From: Bacteroidota bacterium
Lineage (GTDB): Bacteria > Bacteroidota > Bacteroidia > UKL13-3
Length of the DNA stretch: 64,000 nt
Assembly (NCBI GenBank): GCA_947477885.1
Contig: CANJUD010000004.1
Span: 164,997-228,996 of the forward strand
Direction: 5' to 3'
The notes beneath the pieces were generated by a model. It was not told where the DNA came from, ran no database searches, and saw only the letters and a program-made list of their open reading frames with translations. Made by a program: the position numbers and the translations under genes. This document shows positions 14,643 through 64,000 of this stretch, one piece after another. The number at the start of each line of letters is the position of its first letter. Within the stretch, counting starts at the first letter, position 1.

Positions 14643-14705
14643 ACTTTATACCTTATACTATATACTTTCTACTTTTGTCCTTTGTCTTTCGTCTATTGTC
14701 TTTTA
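14643..14705. repeat. heptamer tandem array, 9 units (ACTTTAT x4 then TCTTTNG x4)
   Basis: It has a strict 7-bp period and fills the gap between the protease stop and the lipoprotein start. Confidence 0.65.
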
Positions 14706-31670: not shown

Positions 31671-31677
31671 TTTATTT

Positions 31678-31786
31678 AGTAATCAGTGGTTAGTAAACAG
31701 TAGTCAGCGTTATCCTGTTTTGCAATCAAAACAGGAAGTAAAGTAGCCGTATGGTACTGACTACTGTTAACTAACCACTGATTACT
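31678..31786. repeat. long palindromic element: 30-bp arms (AGTAATCAGTGGTTAGTAAACAGTAGTCAG) with 1 mismatch, and an inner hairpin CCTGTTTTG-caatc-AAAACAGG
   Basis: It is read directly from the sequence. It fills the 117-bp gap between the speA-like start and the nucleotidyltransferase stop. The arm sequence matches the CAGTAGT heptamer family at 59.8-62.6 kb. Confidence 0.8.
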
Positions 31787-31787
31787 A

Positions 31788-32783: not shown

Positions 32784-32825
32784 TTTTTTTAGTCGTTAGT
32801 CATTTAGTTATTAGGCGCTAGTGCC

Positions 32826-32843
32826 TCCCGATAGTTATCGGGA
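32826..32843. repeat. palindrome TCCCGATAGTTATCGGGA
   Basis: It is a near-perfect copy of the 9696-9713 palindrome. Confidence 0.7.
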
Positions 32844-32856
32844 CGGCGGCGGCTCA

Positions 32857-32940
32857 TTCATCTTTCATCTTTATACTTTATACTTTATACTATATACTTT
32901 ATACTTGCTCTCTCTCTTTTCCCTTCTCCACTCTCCTACT
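32857..32940. repeat. heptamer tandem array, 12 units (TTCATCT x2, TTATACT x5, TCTCTTT-like x5)
   Basis: The strict 7-bp period is read directly from the sequence. The array overlaps the last approximately 13 codons of tatC. Confidence 0.75.
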
Positions 32941-43033: not shown

Positions 43034-43383
43034 ATGGAACAGGTAAGACAAATCATTTATTATAAAGGATATTTTTAGACTTTTTTGATTTACAAACTGA
43101 AAAAGTAAAAGAAAAAATAGATTATATATTATTTGCAATAACTGTAGCTGACAGAATTCCACAGAAATTTTTCAAACATATGGAGGTTACTGATGGCTTA
43201 TATGAAATACGAATAGAATATCAAGGAAATATTTTCAGGATTTTTAGTTGTTTTGATGAAGGGAAATTAGTAGTCTTATTTAATGGTTTTCAAAAGAAAA
43301 GTCAAAAAACTCCACAAGGAGAAATAGAAAAGGCGATAAAAATTAAAACTGAATATTTTGCAGAAAAATTAAAACACAAATAA
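43034..43383 (+). pseudogene. higB: HigB / Gp49-type RelE-family toxin gene, frameshifted in a T5 run near 43071-43078
   Basis: From the ATG at 43034, MEQVRQIIYYKGYF* is read. A frame one nucleotide later continues ...LDFFDLQTEKVKEKIDYILFAITVADRIPQKFFKHMEVTDGLYEIRIEYQGNIFRIFSCFDEGKLVVLFNGFQKKSQKTPQGEIEKA, a full-length Gp49/HigB signature. The track ORF 43180-43383 is only the C-terminal two-thirds. Confidence 0.7.
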
Positions 43384-43392
43384 AACAATATT

Positions 43393-43707
43393 ATGAGTAA
43401 AACATATAAAACAAAAAAGAAAAGTGTAACTACTTTTGATGAGCATCTAGACCAGCGTTATGGGAAAATCGGAGCCGTGGAAAGAACTGAATTTGAAATA
43501 AAAGCCAAGTCATTTGCTATTGGAGAAATTATTAAGGAAGAAAGAAAGCTTGCCTCTATGACTCAAGAGCAGTTGGCAGAGAAGACCGGAACGAAAAAAA
43601 GTTTTATTTCACGAATAGAAAATGGTCATAGTGATATACAACTCTCTACCTTATATAAATTGATAGAACTTGGACTTGGACGAAAAATTTCTTTTATTAT
43701 ACAATAA
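43393..43707 (+). CDS. higA: HTH XRE-family antitoxin (HigA-like)
   Basis: The helix-turn-helix reads QEQLAEKTGTKKSFISRIENGHSDIQLSTLYKLIELGL. It lies 9 nt downstream of the toxin. Confidence 0.78.
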   Translation: MSKTYKTKKKSVTTFDEHLDQRYGKIGAVERTEFEIKAKSFAIGEIIKEERKLASMTQEQLAEKTGTKKSFISRIENGHSDIQLSTLYKLIELGLGRKISFIIQ

Positions 43708-45877: not shown

Positions 45878-45921
45878 GCGTCAGCCCATTCACCATTCAT
45901 CATTTATAATTCATCATTATA
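45878..45921. repeat. GCGTCAGCCC anchor + heptamer array (CATTCAC CATTCAT CATTTAT AATTCAT CATTATA)
   Basis: It is read directly from the sequence. The array ends exactly at the TonB-receptor stop codon. Confidence 0.7.
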
Positions 45922-58512: not shown

Positions 58513-58554
58513 ATAATTAGTATAAAGACAAAAGTATAAAGTATATAGTACAAA
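58513..58554. repeat. heptamer array (TAGTATA AAGACAA AAGTATA AAGTATA TAGTACA)
   Basis: It has 7-bp periodicity and follows directly after the giant gene stop. Confidence 0.6.
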
Positions 58555-58592
58555 AAGCCTCTTTGCCATTTTGGTGAAGGGGCTTTTTTGTT
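58555..58592 (+). terminator. rho-independent terminator
   Basis: The sequence is aaaaAGCCTCTTtgccattttggtgAAGGGGCTtttttg. Confidence 0.7.
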
Positions 58593-58637
58593 TTAGATAT
58601 ATAGAACAAAGATGAAAGACTAGAAGAAGTAAATATG

Positions 58638-58680
58638 GCGTCAGCCCATTAACAATTAACAATTAACAATTCAGCATGAA
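58638..58680. repeat. GCGTCAGCCC anchor + (ATTAACA)x3 heptamers
   Basis: The sequence is ggcgtcagcccattaacaattaacaattaacaattcag. Confidence 0.7.
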
Positions 58681-58777: not shown

Positions 58778-59836
58778 TTGCCCTACAAACGCACCAAGAG
58801 CAAGTTACACCAATGGGTGTTCAATCGACGCAATAAGATATCATTGCTACTAGCAGCTATTAGTGCTATTTTCAGGTATTATGTTTTCCCTAACCTCGAT
58901 TGGTCTTGGCATTGCGAAACCTTCATCATCATTTTCTTTGTATGGGCTATCTTATTGAATAGTGCTGCATGGGTCGAACGTTTTTTGAACTGCCATTATC
59001 CACACCAACGCAATGTGGCCAAGCGTATCGCCTTGCAGATACTGATGGGTATGTCGATTATGACTATTATACAGCTCATTTTTAATGCATTCTTTTTAAA
59101 TCACATTTTCGATTATGCCATGCAAAATCGCATGTATCCAGAATTGTTAAATCACCTTGAATATATATTTGTAACTGGAAACTTATTCTTATCGTTTGTT
59201 GTAAATTTATTATATGTAAGCGACCATTTTATCAAAGAATGGAAAACTACATTGATACATAATGAACGAATCAAAAAAGAATCGGCGATGTTGCAGTTTG
59301 AGAATCTGAAAAACCAACTAAATCCGCATTTTCTTTTTAATAGTCTTACTTCATTAAATAGTTTGATCTATGAAAACCAACAACTGGCTTCTGAGTTTTT
59401 GCAACAACTTTCGAAAGTATATAGATATTTATTGTTGCACAAAGATGATAACTTGGTAAAACTTGGAGAAGAATTACAATTTATCAATAGCTTTGTGATG
59501 CTACTCCACACCCGTTTCGACGGACAATTGCAGATAGAAATAAATGTGCCCGAAGAAGATAAACTTCTTACCATCGTACCAGTTACAACTCAAATTTTAA
59601 TTGAGAATGCTATTAAACATAATATAATATCCGCATCGAAACCATTACACATAAAAATATATACAAAAAACAAATACCTAGTAGTAGAAAATAATCTGCA
59701 ACGTAAATCCATCGTAGAAACATCTAACAAGCTCGGACTAGAAAACATGAAAAAGCTCTACCAAATTATTGCAAACAGAGACGTTGAAATTGTAGAAAAT
59801 GAGCATACTTTTGTCGTAATAGTTCCATTACAGTAA
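58778..59836 (+). CDS. LytS/YehU-family sensor histidine kinase
   Basis: The His_kinase (PF06580) motif is LKNQLNPHFLFNSLTSL, and about 4 N-terminal TM helices are present. The track start is TTG; GTG at 58817 is an alternative. Confidence 0.82.
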   Translation: MPYKRTKSKLHQWVFNRRNKISLLLAAISAIFRYYVFPNLDWSWHCETFIIIFFVWAILLNSAAWVERFLNCHYPHQRNVAKRIALQILMGMSIMTIIQLIFNAFFLNHIFDYAMQNRMYPELLNHLEYIFVTGNLFLSFVVNLLYVSDHFIKEWKTTLIHNERIKKESAMLQFENLKNQLNPHFLFNSLTSLNSLIYENQQLASEFLQQLSKVYRYLLLHKDDNLVKLGEELQFINSFVMLLHTRFDGQLQIEINVPEEDKLLTIVPVTTQILIENAIKHNIISASKPLHIKIYTKNKYLVVENNLQRKSIVETSNKLGLENMKKLYQIIANRDVEIVENEHTFVVIVPLQ

Positions 59837-60135
59837 ACAGTAGTCAGTAGTCAGTAGTCAGTAGTCAGTAGTCAGTAGTCAGTAGTCAGTAGTCAGTAGT
59901 CAGTAGTCAGTAGTCAGTAGTCAGTAGTCAGTAGTCAGTAATCAGTAGTCAGTAGTCAGTAGTCAGTAATCAGTAGTCAGTAGTCAGTAGTCAGTAGTCA
60001 GTAGTCAGTAGTCAGTAATCAGTAGTCAGTAGTCAGTAATCAGTGCCATACGGCAGATACTTCGCTACTACCAATTACTGCTCACTAAAAAATGTGCGTT
60101 AGCTACTGACAACTGTTTACTGACTACTGCTCACT
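59837..60135. repeat. (CAGTAGT)n array of about 30 units (59837-60044) followed by inverted-orientation ACTGAC-type units (60076-60135), forming a long imperfect palindrome
   Basis: It is read directly from the sequence. It begins at the first base after the HK stop codon. Confidence 0.9.
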
Positions 60136-60139
60136 AAAT

Positions 60140-60178
60140 ATGAAAATAATAAATGGCTTCATCAAATCACTAAAATAA
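60140..60178 (+). pseudogene. 13-codon relic (MKIINGFIKSLK*) of a four-helix-bundle gene
   Basis: It joins the start and end of gene 62082-62429 across an AAAATWATAAA direct repeat. It is followed by ctaacccctaaaaaatcaGGCGTCAGCCactgactactg. Confidence 0.7.
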
Positions 60179-60241
60179 CTAACCCCTAAAAAATCAGGCG
60201 TCAGCCACTGACTACTGATTACTGACCACTGTTTACTAAAT

Positions 60242-60280
60242 ATGAAAATAATAAATGGCTTCATCAAATCAATAAAATAA
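60242..60280 (+). pseudogene. second relic (MKIINGFIKSIK*)
   Basis: It has the same architecture as 60140-60178 and is followed by the same 60-bp tail. Confidence 0.7.
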
Positions 60281-60342
60281 CTAACCCCTAAAAAATCAGG
60301 CGTCAGCCACTGACTACTGACCACTGACCACTGTTTACTACC

Positions 60343-61107
60343 ATGATTAAAACCCTAATAATAGAAGACGAACCCTTAGTAGCTAAGGACTTAATGCATC
60401 AGTTAAAAAAACTGAACGAGGAAATTGAAATTATCACAACGCTGAGCAGCACTGCTGAGGCAATAGAATGGTTTCAAAATAACCCACAGCCCGATTTGAT
60501 ATTTATGGATATACAATTGAGCGACGGTGTAAGCTTCGACATTTTGAAAGCTGTGAAAGTAACCGCTCCTATCATTTTCACTACGGCTTACGACCAATAT
60601 GCAATCCAAGCGTTTAAACATAATAGTATTGATTATTTGTTAAAACCTATTGATGCGGAAGAACTTCAACATGCCTTCGATCAGTATAATATATATATAT
60701 CTGAGAGCGGTGATTTTACTGTAAAAATAAAAGGTTTATTGGCTAAGCTGAGTGAGGCTGCAGGCAAATATAAAGAACGTTTTATGGTGCAAACCCGAAA
60801 TACGCTCATGCCAGTCCCGGCTAGTGATATCGCTTATTTTTCAAAAGAAGAATTAATATATATATATACCAAAGAAAACCAACGCTATCTCTCGGAGAAT
60901 AATAGCATGGAAGAACTTGAGGAGTTTTGCGATCCTAAATTATTTTACCGGGCTAACAGGCAAGTAATTATTAATGTGGATATGATAGAACGTGTAAAAA
61001 GTAGCTATAACGGAAAACTATTGGCAGTGCTCAAACCGCCCTTTGCTATGGAGATAGACATAAGCCGCGAGAAAGCATCTGATTTTAAAGAATGGCTCGA
61101 TTCGTAG
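60343..61107 (+). CDS. LytR/AlgR-family response regulator (receiver + LytTR DNA-binding domain)
   Basis: The receiver domain has the phospho-acceptor Asp in LIFMDIQLSDG and the conserved Lys in YLLKP. The C-terminal LytTR domain reads FFRANRQVIINVDMI. The ATG follows the repeat immediately. Confidence 0.88.
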   Translation: MIKTLIIEDEPLVAKDLMHQLKKLNEEIEIITTLSSTAEAIEWFQNNPQPDLIFMDIQLSDGVSFDILKAVKVTAPIIFTTAYDQYAIQAFKHNSIDYLLKPIDAEELQHAFDQYNIYISESGDFTVKIKGLLAKLSEAAGKYKERFMVQTRNTLMPVPASDIAYFSKEELIYIYTKENQRYLSENNSMEELEEFCDPKLFYRANRQVIINVDMIERVKSSYNGKLLAVLKPPFAMEIDISREKASDFKEWLDS

Positions 61108-61229
61108 AATTACGAATTGCGAATTGCGAACTGGCTAACGCCTGATTCATATACTGCCTGTGGTTGTGTCTTTTGACCAACCACACTTTTAGCCACTATT
61201 CGTAATTTTTAATTCGTAATTCGTAATTA
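61101..61229. repeat. palindromic heptamer element: (ATTACGA/ATTGCGA)x3 ... inner hairpin TGTGGTTG-n11-CAACCACA ... (ATTCGTA)x4
   Basis: It is read directly from the sequence. It overlaps the RR stop codon. Confidence 0.75.
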
Positions 61230-61255
61230 TCTGAATTCCTATTTACCTTTGCTAC

Positions 61256-61825
61256 ATGGCAACTAAAATATATACAAAGACCGGAGACAAAGGCAGCACA
61301 GGACTTATAGGCGGCAAGCGTGTTTCCAAATCGCATGAGCGGATTGAGGCTTATGGCACTGTAGATGAACTTAATTCATACTTAGGATTGGTAAGTGATG
61401 CCATTACTATTGATAGCAAAAAAGAAGAACTAAAATATATCCAAGACCGCTTGTTTACGGTTGGTTCTAACTTGGCTTGCGACGATGAAAATGCCAAAAT
61501 GATTCTCCCCGACCTCACTGAAAATGATATAACACTTCTCGAAAAATACATCGACCAAATGGATACAGAATTGGAACCTCTCAAAAACTTTATTATACCC
61601 GGCGGACATATACATATATCATACTGCCACATTGCACGCTGCGTGTGCCGCAGGGCCGAGCGACTCTGTGTGCAACTAATGGAGCATAGTTTTGTGCCAC
61701 CGCTTATTATACAATATTTAAATAGATTGAGCGATTATCTATTTGCTTTATCACGTTATATAGGGAAGCATTTGGGAGTAGCAGAGATTGTATGGGAACC
61801 GAGAAAAGTAAACAGTAGTCAGTAG
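61256..61825 (+). CDS. PduO-type ATP:cob(I)alamin adenosyltransferase
   Basis: MATKIYTKTGDKGSTGL...ERIEAYGTVDELNS is the MMAB/PduO N-terminal signature. The last 6 codons (KVNSSQ) are encoded by the following heptamer array. Confidence 0.82.
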   Translation: MATKIYTKTGDKGSTGLIGGKRVSKSHERIEAYGTVDELNSYLGLVSDAITIDSKKEELKYIQDRLFTVGSNLACDDENAKMILPDLTENDITLLEKYIDQMDTELEPLKNFIIPGGHIHISYCHIARCVCRRAERLCVQLMEHSFVPPLIIQYLNRLSDYLFALSRYIGKHLGVAEIVWEPRKVNSSQ

Positions 61826-62081
61826 TCAGTAAACAGTAGTCAGTAAACAGTAGTCAGTAAACAGTAGTCAGTAAACAGTAGTCAGTAAACAGTAGTCAGT
61901 AAGCAGTAGTCAGTAAACAGTAGTCAGTAAGCAGTAGTCAGTAAGCAGTAGTCAGTAAGCAGTAGTCAGTAAGCAGTAGTCAGTAAGCATTAGTCAGTAA
62001 ACAGTAGTCAGTAATCAGTAATCAGTTTGCTGACGCCGAATGGCACTGACTACTGTTTACTGACTACTGACCACTAAAATT
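61808..62081. repeat. (AAACAGTAGTCAGT)n 14-bp (2x7) tandem array of about 16 units, then GCTGACGCC anchor in inverted orientation and ACTGAC-type units up to the next ATG
   Basis: It is read directly from the sequence. Confidence 0.9.
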
Positions 62082-62429: not shown

Positions 62430-62642
62430 CTAACCACTAAAAAGCACGCGTAAGCCACTGACTACTGTTTACTGACCACTGTTTACTAAATATGAAAATA
62501 ATAAATGGCTTCATCAAATCACTAAAATAACTAACCCCTAAAAAATCAGGCGTCAGCCACTGACTACTGACTACTGTTTACTGACCAATGACCACTAAAA
62601 AGCACGCGTAAGCCACTGACTACTGTTTACTGTCTACTAATT
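62430..62642. repeat. repeat tail units (CTAACCNCTAAAAAgcaCGCGTaAGCCACTGACTACTGTTTACTGACCACTG) x3 with an embedded relic mini-ORF
   Basis: It is read directly from the sequence. The last unit ends 2 nt before the ispG ATG. Confidence 0.8.
62492..62530 (+). pseudogene. third relic mini-ORF (MKIINGFIKSLK*)
   Basis: It is identical to the relic at 60140-60178. Confidence 0.7.
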
Positions 62643-64000
62643 ATGAGAAGAAAAACCACCACCGTCACAATAGGAAACACGCCCATGGGCAGTGATTTCC
62701 CCATCCGTATACAATCCATGACTACCACGGATACAATGGACACAGAGAAAACTGTGGAGCAAAGTATTCGTATGATAGAGAGTGGTTGCGAGTATGTTCG
62801 TATTACTGCACCAAGTATTAACGAAGCACAGAATTTACAGAATATTATAGACGAATTACGCAAAAGTGGATATCATACTCCCCTAGTTGCTGATATACAT
62901 TTTACGCCTAATGCAGCGGAAGTTGCAGCGAGAATTGTAGAAAAAGTTCGCATCAATCCTGGGAATTTTGCAGATAAGAAAAAGTTTGAAACGATTGAAT
63001 ATAATGATGCAGAATATGAAGAAGAACTAGAACGCATCAAACAAAAATTCACGCCGCTTATACATATATGCAAAGAGCACGGCACTGCTATGCGTATTGG
63101 CACAAACCACGGCTCCCTGAGCGACCGAATCATGAGCAGATATGGAGACACGCCGCTAGGGATGGTAGAATCAGCTTTGGAATTTTTGAGAATTTGCAGG
63201 GCAGGAGACTATCATAATATTGTGCTCAGTATGAAAAGCAGCAACCCGCAAGTGATGGTGCAAGCGTATAGATTATTGGTGCAACGCATGGATATGGAAA
63301 ACATGCACTACCCTTTGCATATAGGTGTTACCGAAGCAGGCGATGGTGACGATGGCAGAATTAAATCTGCTATAGGAATTGGAACTTTATTGGAAGAAGG
63401 ATTGGGTGATACCGTCCGTGTTTCGCTTACCGAAGATCCAGAATTTGAAGCACCGGTTGCAAAAGCTTTGGTAGAAAGATATAATATCCCCGCTCCCGCC
63501 GAATTGATTACAGAAGATTATTCTGACTCCCTAAAAGTGAAAGAACATTATAGTCCTTTCAGTTATCAAAAACGCAAGACTATAGAAGTAGCAAACATCG
63601 GTGGACACCAATTGCCAAGGGTTATAGCTGATTTTTCCAACTTAGATACTATAACAGAATTCGACCTGCAGCAAGTGGGACATATATATGATGCTGCACT
63701 GGATAAATGGCATATGACCGAACAAGGTTGCGATTATATATATGCGAAAAATAGTATTATAAATTTCATGTTGCCCAATGGCTTGAAAGCAATATATGAT
63801 TATCATACTTGGGAGAAATTAGCTGATAGAGAAAATGCTTTTCCACTAATTGAAATTGGAAATACAAAAGACAATATTACCTGGCATTCCAAATTGAATT
63901 TTGTATATATCAATGATATTTCTCAAATATCTAAACTCCTGCATATCCCTGAAAACGCAGTGCTGGTGCTAGAGTGCAAACACGCCAGACCACTTACTAT
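62643..64000 (+). CDS. ispG: 4-hydroxy-3-methylbut-2-enyl diphosphate synthase (long form with inserted domain), partial at the window end
   Basis: VTIGNTPMGSDFPIRIQSMTTTDT...RITAPSINEAQNL...VRINPGNFADKK...IGTNHGSL...LHIGVTEAGDG. There is no stop codon before the window end. Confidence 0.9.
   Translation, partial: MRRKTTTVTIGNTPMGSDFPIRIQSMTTTDTMDTEKTVEQSIRMIESGCEYVRITAPSINEAQNLQNIIDELRKSGYHTPLVADIHFTPNAAEVAARIVEKVRINPGNFADKKKFETIEYNDAEYEEELERIKQKFTPLIHICKEHGTAMRIGTNHGSLSDRIMSRYGDTPLGMVESALEFLRICRAGDYHNIVLSMKSSNPQVMVQAYRLLVQRMDMENMHYPLHIGVTEAGDGDDGRIKSAIGIGTLLEEGLGDTVRVSLTEDPEFEAPVAKALVERYNIPAPAELITEDYSDSLKVKEHYSPFSYQKRKTIEVANIGGHQLPRVIADFSNLDTITEFDLQQVGHIYDAALDKWHMTEQGCDYIYAKNSIINFMLPNGLKAIYDYHTWEKLADRENAFPLIEIGNTKDNITWHSKLNFVYINDISQISKLLHIPENAVLVLECKHARPLT

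Follow-up and report, generated by a model that had tools for sequence, protein, structure and literature searches.

A probable decayed, intervening-sequence-like four-helix-bundle cassette between a LytS-family kinase gene and a LytTR regulator gene in a Bacteroidota bacterium

In Coxiella, Leptospira, Xanthomonas and Brucella, the intervening sequences (IVSs) of the 23S ribosomal RNA (rRNA) contain an S23p/PF05635 open reading frame (ORF) inside a stem that is cut by RNase III (PMC4990558). The S23p ORF of Coxiella is preceded by two to three GACAGAT heptamers, a number that depends on the strain, and the first repeat is the site of RNase III cleavage; in one strain the IVS ORF has lost 176 bp internally (PMC4990558). 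These elements are regarded as selfish and horizontally acquired (PMC4990558). The present analysis concerns a 506-nt spacer (positions 59837–60342) between the genes for a LytS-family histidine kinase (HK) and a LytTR response regulator (RR). It lies in a stretch of 64,000 nt from contig CANJUD010000004.1 of a Bacteroidota bacterium, referred to here as the window. The spacer is probably a decayed copy of an IVS-like selfish cassette that spread by recombination, and not a dedicated regulator of HK and RR. By its sequence, the cassette is a gene for a PF05635/TIGR02436 four-helix-bundle (4HB) protein placed between inverted arms of tandem 7-nt repeats.

Tandem heptamer repeats have been described in their own right. 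Repeats of TAACTGA abut start codons in Beggiatoaceae, cyanobacteria and five Bacteroidetes, and long arrays are missing from the orthologous spacers of close relatives (MacGregor 2015, PMC4679880). The published "forward" arrays often end within a few nt of the start codon and reach up to tens of copies in some Bacteroidetes, and the same work speculated that a repeat-binding protein could be a mobile element. Heptamer simple sequence repeats are over-represented in Xanthomonas and Nostoc (GGGAATC; PMC4692102), and an unidentified heptamer-binding partner has been invoked in Nostoc (bioRxiv 10.1101/2022.06.06.494920). An intervening-sequence or S23 protein is mentioned neither in PMC4679880 nor in PMC4692102, and a literature search found nothing that links PF05635/S23p genes outside rRNA with heptamer repeats. 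The window is similar to the TAACTGA and short tandemly repeated repetitive (STRR) sequences in having 7-nt tandem intergenic units, which often abut a start codon. It is unlike them in that the units are CAGTAGT/ACTGACT and form inverted pairs around a gene or a core motif. The published units TAACTGA, CCCCAGT, TTGGTCA, CAACAGT, GGGAATC and GACAGAT, STRR1-3 included, give zero tandem pairs in the window.

A 4HB cassette and its remnants

The PF06580 kinase gene is followed on the same strand by a gene for a Response_reg plus LytTR regulator, which identifies a LytS/LytTR pair. Such genes normally abut, as the original prediction had assumed. The gap is -23 to +20 nt at 13 distant homologous loci of Bacteroidota, which have LytTR proteins of 35–45% identity and are not orthologs but a spacing baseline only, and relative to this range the 506-nt gap of the window is atypical. 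The spacer is composed of repeat modules (Table 1). The predicted 30-unit array is present, but it does not begin after the HK stop codon: the TAA (59834–59836) is itself inside the first heptamer (unit 0, CAGTAAA, 59831–59837), and five units differ from CAGTAGT (one CAGTAAA and four CAGTAAT, next to 25 CAGTAGT). TAG is present in the left arm in all three frames. Inverted units, two mini-ORFs and two GGCGTCAGCC tails follow as had been described, and the RR start codon (60343) indeed abuts the last repeat unit, the 5' region of RR being wholly repeat-derived. The order of the modules is constant: core motif C1 is always directly after a left arm and core motif C2 always before a right arm. 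The unit of relic, GGCGTCAGCC and right arm is 102 bp, with 2.5 copies in the spacer as determined by Tandem Repeats Finder (TRF).

The two mini-ORFs were rightly called relics, but their origin had been missed. They derive from a PF05635 four-helix-bundle gene, of which an intact copy is found 1.7 kb downstream of the HK-RR spacer, within a sister element located 1.5 kb downstream. The intact protein has an E value of 1.5e-32 to PF05635 (112.4 bits, cut-off 33.8) and of 1.8e-32 to TIGR02436 (111.8 bits, cut-off 24). Its nearest relatives of solved structure are PDB 2gsc (1.4e-9) and 2rld (1.8e-8). A relic joins the first 8 nt of the intact gene to its last 36 nt with a 5-nt overlap (AAAAT), i.e., it represents a 309-nt in-frame deletion at a 5-nt microhomology. 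The HK-RR spacer has only these 12-codon relics and no intact gene.

The same junctions were compared in three related taxa, L005, L006 and L034, which were obtained by scanning species-representative genomes and metagenomes once each. The HK orthologs of all three have the same length as that of the window, and the regulator proteins of L005 and L006 are 89–90% identical to RR. The original prediction had called for a comparison of the spacing at orthologous junctions; there the contents differ. In L005 the HK-RR junction is 539 nt and contains about four heptamers, C1, C2 with a right arm, the intact 4HB gene, and again C2 with a right arm; its PduO-ispG junction is off the contig. In L034 the HK-RR junction is 569 nt with an intact 4HB gene. 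The junction in L006 is only 71 nt and consists of AAGGAGTAAGGA, GGCGTCAGCC and (TCCTTAT)n, a small hairpin whose heptamers differ from those of the window. At PduO-ispG, both L034 and L006 have a simple heptamer-core-heptamer element without 4HB, and the 817-nt spacer of the window has an array, the intact 4HB gene and one relic. Presence or absence of the 4HB cassette thus varies at two different junctions among close relatives. As read from these junctions, the intact cassette was already present between HK and RR in an ancestor of the lineage, and two sister species have kept it there.

Compared with L005, the window spacer shows loss of 309 nt of the ORF, tandem duplication of the 102-bp remnant, and about 30 left-arm heptamers in place of about four. 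Starting from an L005-type state, it would thus have arisen by deletion in the ORF, by amplification of the remnant in tandem and by lengthening of the left arm. The number of remnants also differs between samples. In contigs from other samples with a regulator protein identical to that of the window (L002 and L003), the 102-bp unit is present in five copies in L003 and in at least three in L002, a contig that begins inside the repeat, against two in the window.

Divergence values set the cassette apart from its surroundings. Among the window, L005 and L034 the synonymous divergence (dS) of the 4HB gene is 0.33–0.56, as against 1.4–2.1 for RR and 1.0–2.3 for HK. Although the 4HB copies compared do not share a junction (that of the window is at PduO-ispG, those of L005 and L034 are at HK-RR), they are closer to each other than are the orthologous host genes. 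This implies that the cassette is much younger than its surroundings or has been homogenised independently of them. Purifying selection acts on the 4HB protein, as shown by the dN/dS ratio of 0.09–0.11 among the same three copies. The 3' end of the cassette, from the interior of the relic to ...GTTTACTA, matches L005 base for base over about 100 nt when read by eye, and the adjoining RR gene is 81% identical between the two.

The modules of the HK-RR block are not limited to this two-component system, as they also fill the PduO-ispG spacer. There, relic 3 (62492–62530) is located 3' of the intact 4HB gene and is identical to relic 1. The ATG of ispG abuts the right arm; its true start is 62643, in frame with the public gene call at 62685, and the N-terminus read from 62643, MRRKTTTVTIGNTPMG, has a near-identical counterpart (MRRKTNTVTIGNTPMG) in both L006 and L034. 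As many spacers of the genome are built of the same modules, we infer movement of the cassette by recombination or gene conversion. The route may have been homologous recombination or gene conversion between dispersed heptamer and core modules, together with horizontal exchange between relatives.

The sister array also affects its upstream gene. The last five codons of PduO (VNSSQ) and its TAG stop come from the heptamer array (61808–61825), and the L034 ortholog ends five residues sooner (..EPSKK, then stop). The two direct arrays of about 210 nt (59831–60044 and 61809–62028, 88% identical) bracket RR and PduO, and homologous recombination between them would delete both genes.

The closest known system is the rRNA IVS. 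As in the IVS, the cassette protein belongs to PF05635 (PDB 2gsc is the Xanthomonas member), the ORF is in the loop of a stem formed by the flanking inverted repeats (centroid fold of L005), heptamers in variable number are directly upstream of the ORF, and the ORF is prone to internal deletion. The view of the IVS as a selfish, horizontally acquired element is taken of the cassette as well. There are also differences. The cassette is located between protein-coding genes of operons (HK/RR, PduO/ispG) and not in a 23S rRNA helix, so that identity with a 23S rRNA IVS proper is rejected. Its arms are long heptamer arrays of up to 30 units and not short unique inverted repeats, and this lineage has the extra core motifs GCCATACGGC and GGCGTCAGCC. 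It is best described as an IVS-like cassette that resides in mRNA operons.

Other element classes were also considered. The relic units resemble MITEs (miniature transposable elements with inverted repeats) and REPINs in being internally deleted, non-coding derivatives of a gene-bearing element with the ends kept, amplified and present at two loci. Unlike these, the relics are amplified in tandem, no target-site duplication is recognisable and spread appears to be through host recombination. MITE identity was rejected, as the parent element carries a 4HB gene and not a transposase. Among window ORFs of at least 90 codons there is no transposase, reverse transcriptase or REP-associated tyrosine transposase (RAYT), and no IS200/IS605-like Y1 transposase gene of the REP/REPIN-RAYT type. 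The diversity-generating retroelement (DGR) accessory protein Avd, a nucleic-acid-binding factor, has a pentameric four-helix-bundle fold and is homologous to 4HB (PMC10053308). Identity with a DGR was rejected, with neither an RVT domain nor a template/variable repeat pair anywhere in the window.

Heptamer arms at other 4HB loci

A metagenome scan gave 80 loci with 4HB homologues of 59–90% identity, of which 63 are non-redundant with intact ORFs. A period-7/14/21 array is present within 100 nt upstream of the 4HB gene in 38 of the 63 loci and downstream in 44 of them; random control windows have such arrays in 5 of 162 cases. Within the same loci, period-7 arrays are found in 70 of 103 spacers adjacent to 4HB (68%) and in 21 of 93 other spacers (23%), which gives an odds ratio of 7.3 (Fisher p = 1.5e-10). 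The arm heptamers differ by locus, e.g., AAGGAGT/ACTCCTT, AAGTCGT/ACGACTT and TTAGTAG/CTAACTA. An ungapped score of arm complementarity was too strict for these variable heptamers, and duplex energy was used in its place. The median duplex energy of a locus's own arms is -37.4 kcal/mol, compared with -26.1 kcal/mol for arms paired across loci (p = 5e-6). Neighbours of 4HB at the metagenome loci are mostly co-directional, with a median gap of about 46 nt, and 8 of 79 copies are pseudogenes that carry premature stops.

These results bear on the proposal that the arrays are ordinary heptamer microsatellites, made by slippage in the manner of STRRs near a small gene and having no functional or historical link to 4HB. 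Heptamer repeats are over-represented in some bacteria independent of any gene (PMC4692102, PMC4679880). Arrays are also found in the 23% of other spacers at the 4HB loci, and in 13 of 29 window spacers (45%), compared with 25 of 203 (12%) in other Bacteroidota loci. The enrichment beside 4HB, the inverted and locus-matched arms, and the presence of the pattern across three phyla and in the Coxiella IVS make such an independent origin very improbable.

The cassette design is found between genes in many Bacteroidota, in cyanobacteria and in one alphaproteobacterium. A 4HB homologue is present in 27 plasmid records, of which at least 21 are cyanobacterial and 4 are from Riemerella. Among the 12 plasmid copies inspected (cyanobacteria, Riemerella, Azospirillum), 11 have arms of approximately 7-nt repeats, inverted in 10 of the 11. 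At some plasmid loci a 4HB gene, together with its heptamer arms, separates cas6 from cas4 or cmr2 from cmr3; the copies embedded among cas genes are from Anabaena sp. 90 pANA02 (L120), Pseudanabaena pPg_01 (L126) and a plasmid of Picosynechococcus PCC 7003 (L123). A large survey based on clustering counts PF05635 as a CRISPR-associated domain (PMC10910872), a scoring that may be explained by its position between cas genes in these three cyanobacterial plasmids. The family is large, with 11,803 clusters at 50% identity for E <= 1e-3.

A more general proposal is that PF05635 4HB proteins and the heptamer tandem repeats of bacteria are two halves of one system. The microsatellites would be footprints or landing pads of a 4HB-carrying selfish element, and 4HB, as an Avd homologue, would be the heptamer-binding factor that seeds, maintains or exploits them. 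The rRNA IVSs would then be the special case in rRNA. The heptamers concerned would be the cyanobacterial STRR, TAACTGA (Beggiatoaceae, Bacteroidetes), GGGAATC (Xanthomonas) and GACAGAT (Coxiella IVS). This proposal is speculative, and at present its correctness is doubtful.

Secondary structure, expression and alternative explanations

Secondary structure modeling of positions 59825–60360 gives a minimum free energy (MFE) of -173.5 kcal/mol with a z value of -12.5. The model displays three nested stems of about 30–35 bp, formed between the right-hand blocks and separate stretches of the left arm, one per block. The hairpin of 200 bp or more proposed originally is not upheld: against a left arm of 214 nt, the blocks complementary to it reach only 34–35 nt each. 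In the outermost predicted stem, R3 and the bases before the AUG pair with the start of the left arm at the kinase stop region, and in the MFE structure the RR AUG pairs with the CAU of HK codon CCA.

Such a structure might suggest a dedicated cis-regulatory device, one retained because it weakens read-through, acts as a promoter or fixes the ratio of HK to RR. The block fills precisely the interval from the HK stop to the RR start, these two points are joined by the outermost predicted stem with the RR AUG paired, and spacers at this junction are long in three of the four related taxa. Against this, the same modules are found in unrelated spacers (PduO-ispG and the minus-strand gap 31671–31787), the content of the orthologous junctions ranges from 71 to 569 nt, and the number of relics varies within the population. 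The Bacteroidetes -7 motif TAnnTTTG is absent from the HK-RR spacer. There is also no plus-strand intrinsic terminator within 59837–60342, and identity with an intrinsic terminator or attenuator was rejected, as no GC-rich stem with a U-run is found on this strand between HK and RR; the only good plus-strand terminator is upstream of HK (58552–58588). For the RR start, the predicted ensemble accessibility is 0.42, near the median of 0.48 for gene starts in the window and just below their interquartile range (0.43–0.60), and occlusion of the start is thus unsupported. The attenuator, promoter and stoichiometry effects of the original prediction are neither favored nor contradicted by these results, and would be possible side effects of a selfish insertion. 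A dedicated device of this kind is improbable. A sigma-70 promoter scan was uninformative (17 sites, compared with 16.0 ± 3.8 in shuffled sequences), and an Rfam scan of the whole window at gathering thresholds returned zero families, rRNA included.

One weak lead concerns the end of the kinase gene. A TAnnTTTG match, TACTTTTG, is at 59806–59813 inside the last 30 nt of HK. It is kept or nearly so in L005, L006 and L034, and could start a transcript just before the array. The site has no -33 TTTG, and TAnnTTTG occurs 48 times per strand in the window.

If the spacer is a decayed cassette, HK and RR would still be co-transcribed through it. The left arm would stop ribosomes in every frame, and the right arm would supply the start context ...ACTAxxATG, which is the same as in the 4HB gene, the relics and ispG. 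The insertion may have been tolerated because of these two properties, i.e., TAG in all frames of the left arm and the start context of the right arm. By analogy with rRNA IVSs, RNase III may cut the transcript at its 30–35-bp arm duplexes, which would separate the HK and RR messages.

Several points weigh against a decayed cassette that has moved by recombination. Arm polarity is consistent, G-rich upstream and C-rich downstream in 53–54 of 65 loci; a purely symmetric origin at the DNA level does not predict this, and the polarity counts against such an origin. Mismatches in the arms show no excess of G:U over A:C (37 vs 39), which gives no sign that a sense-RNA helix, a requirement of processing by RNase III, has been selected for. 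The low dS of the cassette could partly reflect gene conversion and not transfer. No movement event is directly seen, and the exact 4HB protein is found in one context only, PduO-ispG, in public assemblies. The difference at the L006 junction may reflect either a gain or a loss. Lastly, the sequences throughout are short-read metagenome assemblies, in which the copy numbers of repeats may be inaccurate and arrays interrupt contigs.

Consistent polarity relative to the ORF is favorable to another explanation, a domesticated, host-dependent RNA processing site like that of the IVS. RNase III would cleave the double-stranded arms, release the 4HB or relic loop and uncouple the flanking genes in stability and translation. 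In the L005 fold the entire 4HB ORF lies between the paired arms, as in the rRNA IVSs that RNase III cuts (PMC4990558), and arm complementarity is locus-specific even though the heptamers differ between loci. The lack of G:U versus A:C asymmetry in the mismatches argues against it, as do the pseudogene copies (8 of 79) and the non-complementary or direct arms at some loci (Pseudanabaena; window 32784–32898). Such a site seems unlikely, although less so than a dedicated regulator of HK and RR.

The possibility that a chimeric or collapsed repeat in the metagenome contig produced the spacer was also considered. The source is a k141 short-read assembly, and several other contigs start or end inside arrays. 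The same junctions and pattern of variant units are nevertheless present in contigs from other samples, and sister species have a homologous architecture. In particular, the pattern at the 3' end of the HK-RR array is repeated in L003 and L004, which are assemblies from other samples. The array is therefore real, and an artefact is hardly credible. The exact copy number is uncertain, as the L003 and L004 contigs begin inside the array and the 14 perfect 5' units are beyond short-read resolution. Contig starts and stops are located in heptamer arrays in L002–L004, in L116–L118 and at the end of L005.

Window features, other repeats and significance

Coordinates of the modules and genes are shown in Table 1. 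The genomic context is ordinary chromosomal, with gyrA, uvrC, tatC and type IX secretion system (T9SS) cargo in the window.

Table 1. Modules and genes of the HK-RR and PduO-ispG junctions (positions in the window)
Feature	Position	Strand	Basis or remark
LytS-family histidine kinase HK, 352 aa	58778..59836	+	PF06580 His_kinase, E 1.4e-21
Left arm, 30 heptamer units and trailing CAGT	59831..60044	+	TRF 29.6 copies, 96% matches, score 386
Core C1 GCCATACGGC	60045..60054	+	Motif and position shared by L005, L006, L034
Inter-core stretch, 41 nt, ending in degenerate C2 GCGTTAGCT (60096-104)	60055..60104	+	Homologous to L005 4173-4226
Right-arm block R1 ACTGACAACTGTTTACTGACTACTGCTCACTAAAT, inverted ACTG-heptamers, reverse complement of left-arm units	60105..60139	+	
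Relic 1, 12-codon mini-ORF MKIINGFIKSLK with stop	60140..60178	+	4HB deletion derivative
Cassette 3' tail CTAACCCCTAAAAAATCA, C2 GGCGTCAGCC (60197-206) and block R2 (60207-41)	60179..60241	+	
Relic 2, 12-codon mini-ORF MKIINGFIKSIK with stop	60242..60280	+	Tandem duplicate, 102-bp unit
Tail, C2 GGCGTCAGCC (60299-308) and block R3 (60309-42), ending ...TTTACTACC	60281..60342	+	
LytTR response regulator RR, 254 aa	60343..61107	+	PF00072 Response_reg and PF04397 LytTR; BtsR/LytR-like
Separate heptamer hairpin: (GAATTGC)n, GGCTAACGCC (C2 on minus strand), inner hairpin, (ATTCGTA)n	61108..61230	.	
PduO-type cob(I)alamin adenosyltransferase	61256..61825	+	TIGR00636, E 2e-55
Sister left arm (CAGTAGTCAGTAAA) x 14.8	61809..62028	+	TRF score 351; 88% identical to HK-RR array
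Fused core, inverted (GCTGACGCCGAATGGC, reverse complement of C1+C2), and right-arm block up to 4HB ATG	62029..62081	+	
Intact 4HB / 23S rRNA-IVS protein gene, 115 aa	62082..62429	+	PF05635, TIGR02436
Sister tail: C2-like GCGTAAGCC and R, relic 3, C2 and R, C2-like and R, to ispG ATG	62430..62642	+	
ispG (GcpE), runs off window	62643..64000	+	PF04551, E 1e-88

Further repeats are present in the window. A simple element of the CAGTAGT family at 31671–31787 has no 4HB gene and is between two minus-strand genes, an Orn/Arg decarboxylase-like gene and an NTP_transferase gene. Its left and right arms, the right one extending to the downstream ATG, are accompanied by a CCATACGGC core and an inner hairpin (CCTGTTTTG..CAAAACAGG). 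The hairpin CTGCCTGTGGTTGTG / CACAACCACAGGCAG is common to two heptamer elements (61154–61190 and 2730–2780). Spacers with other heptamers (AGTATAA, CTAACGA, CATTCAC, ATTAACA) are found at 32784–32898, 14643–14692, 45878–45921, 58519–58671 and 2780–2813, and several of these come directly after a GCGTCAGC(C) motif. A second small repeat family consists of intergenic TCCCGA..TCGGGA palindromes of 17–19 nt, at 1464, 7781, 9696 and 32826. At 43339–43417, a 37-nt unit repeated 2.1 times is just upstream of a small HTH_3 gene (43393–43707) and overlaps its start. In L034, heptamer arms hold three nested copies of a 14-nt palindrome, CCCGCCGCGGCGGG (2616, 2709 and 4634), which recalls the very small nested mobile repeats reportedly seen in cyanobacteria by Elhai et al. 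in 2008.

What appears to be an exotic regulatory palindrome would thus be a decaying selfish insertion in an operon, with a history that runs from an intact gene through internal deletion and tandem amplification to arm expansion. The heptamer class of repeats has practical consequences as well, in that it systematically breaks metagenome assemblies, fragments metagenome-assembled genomes and makes copy numbers unreliable. Two orphan observations are linked here, the excess of 7-nt repeats in Bacteroidota, cyanobacteria and some proteobacteria, and the very large PF05635 family, whose function is unknown. Should the link prove to hold genome-wide, it would provide a concrete candidate protein for the biology of heptamer repeats.

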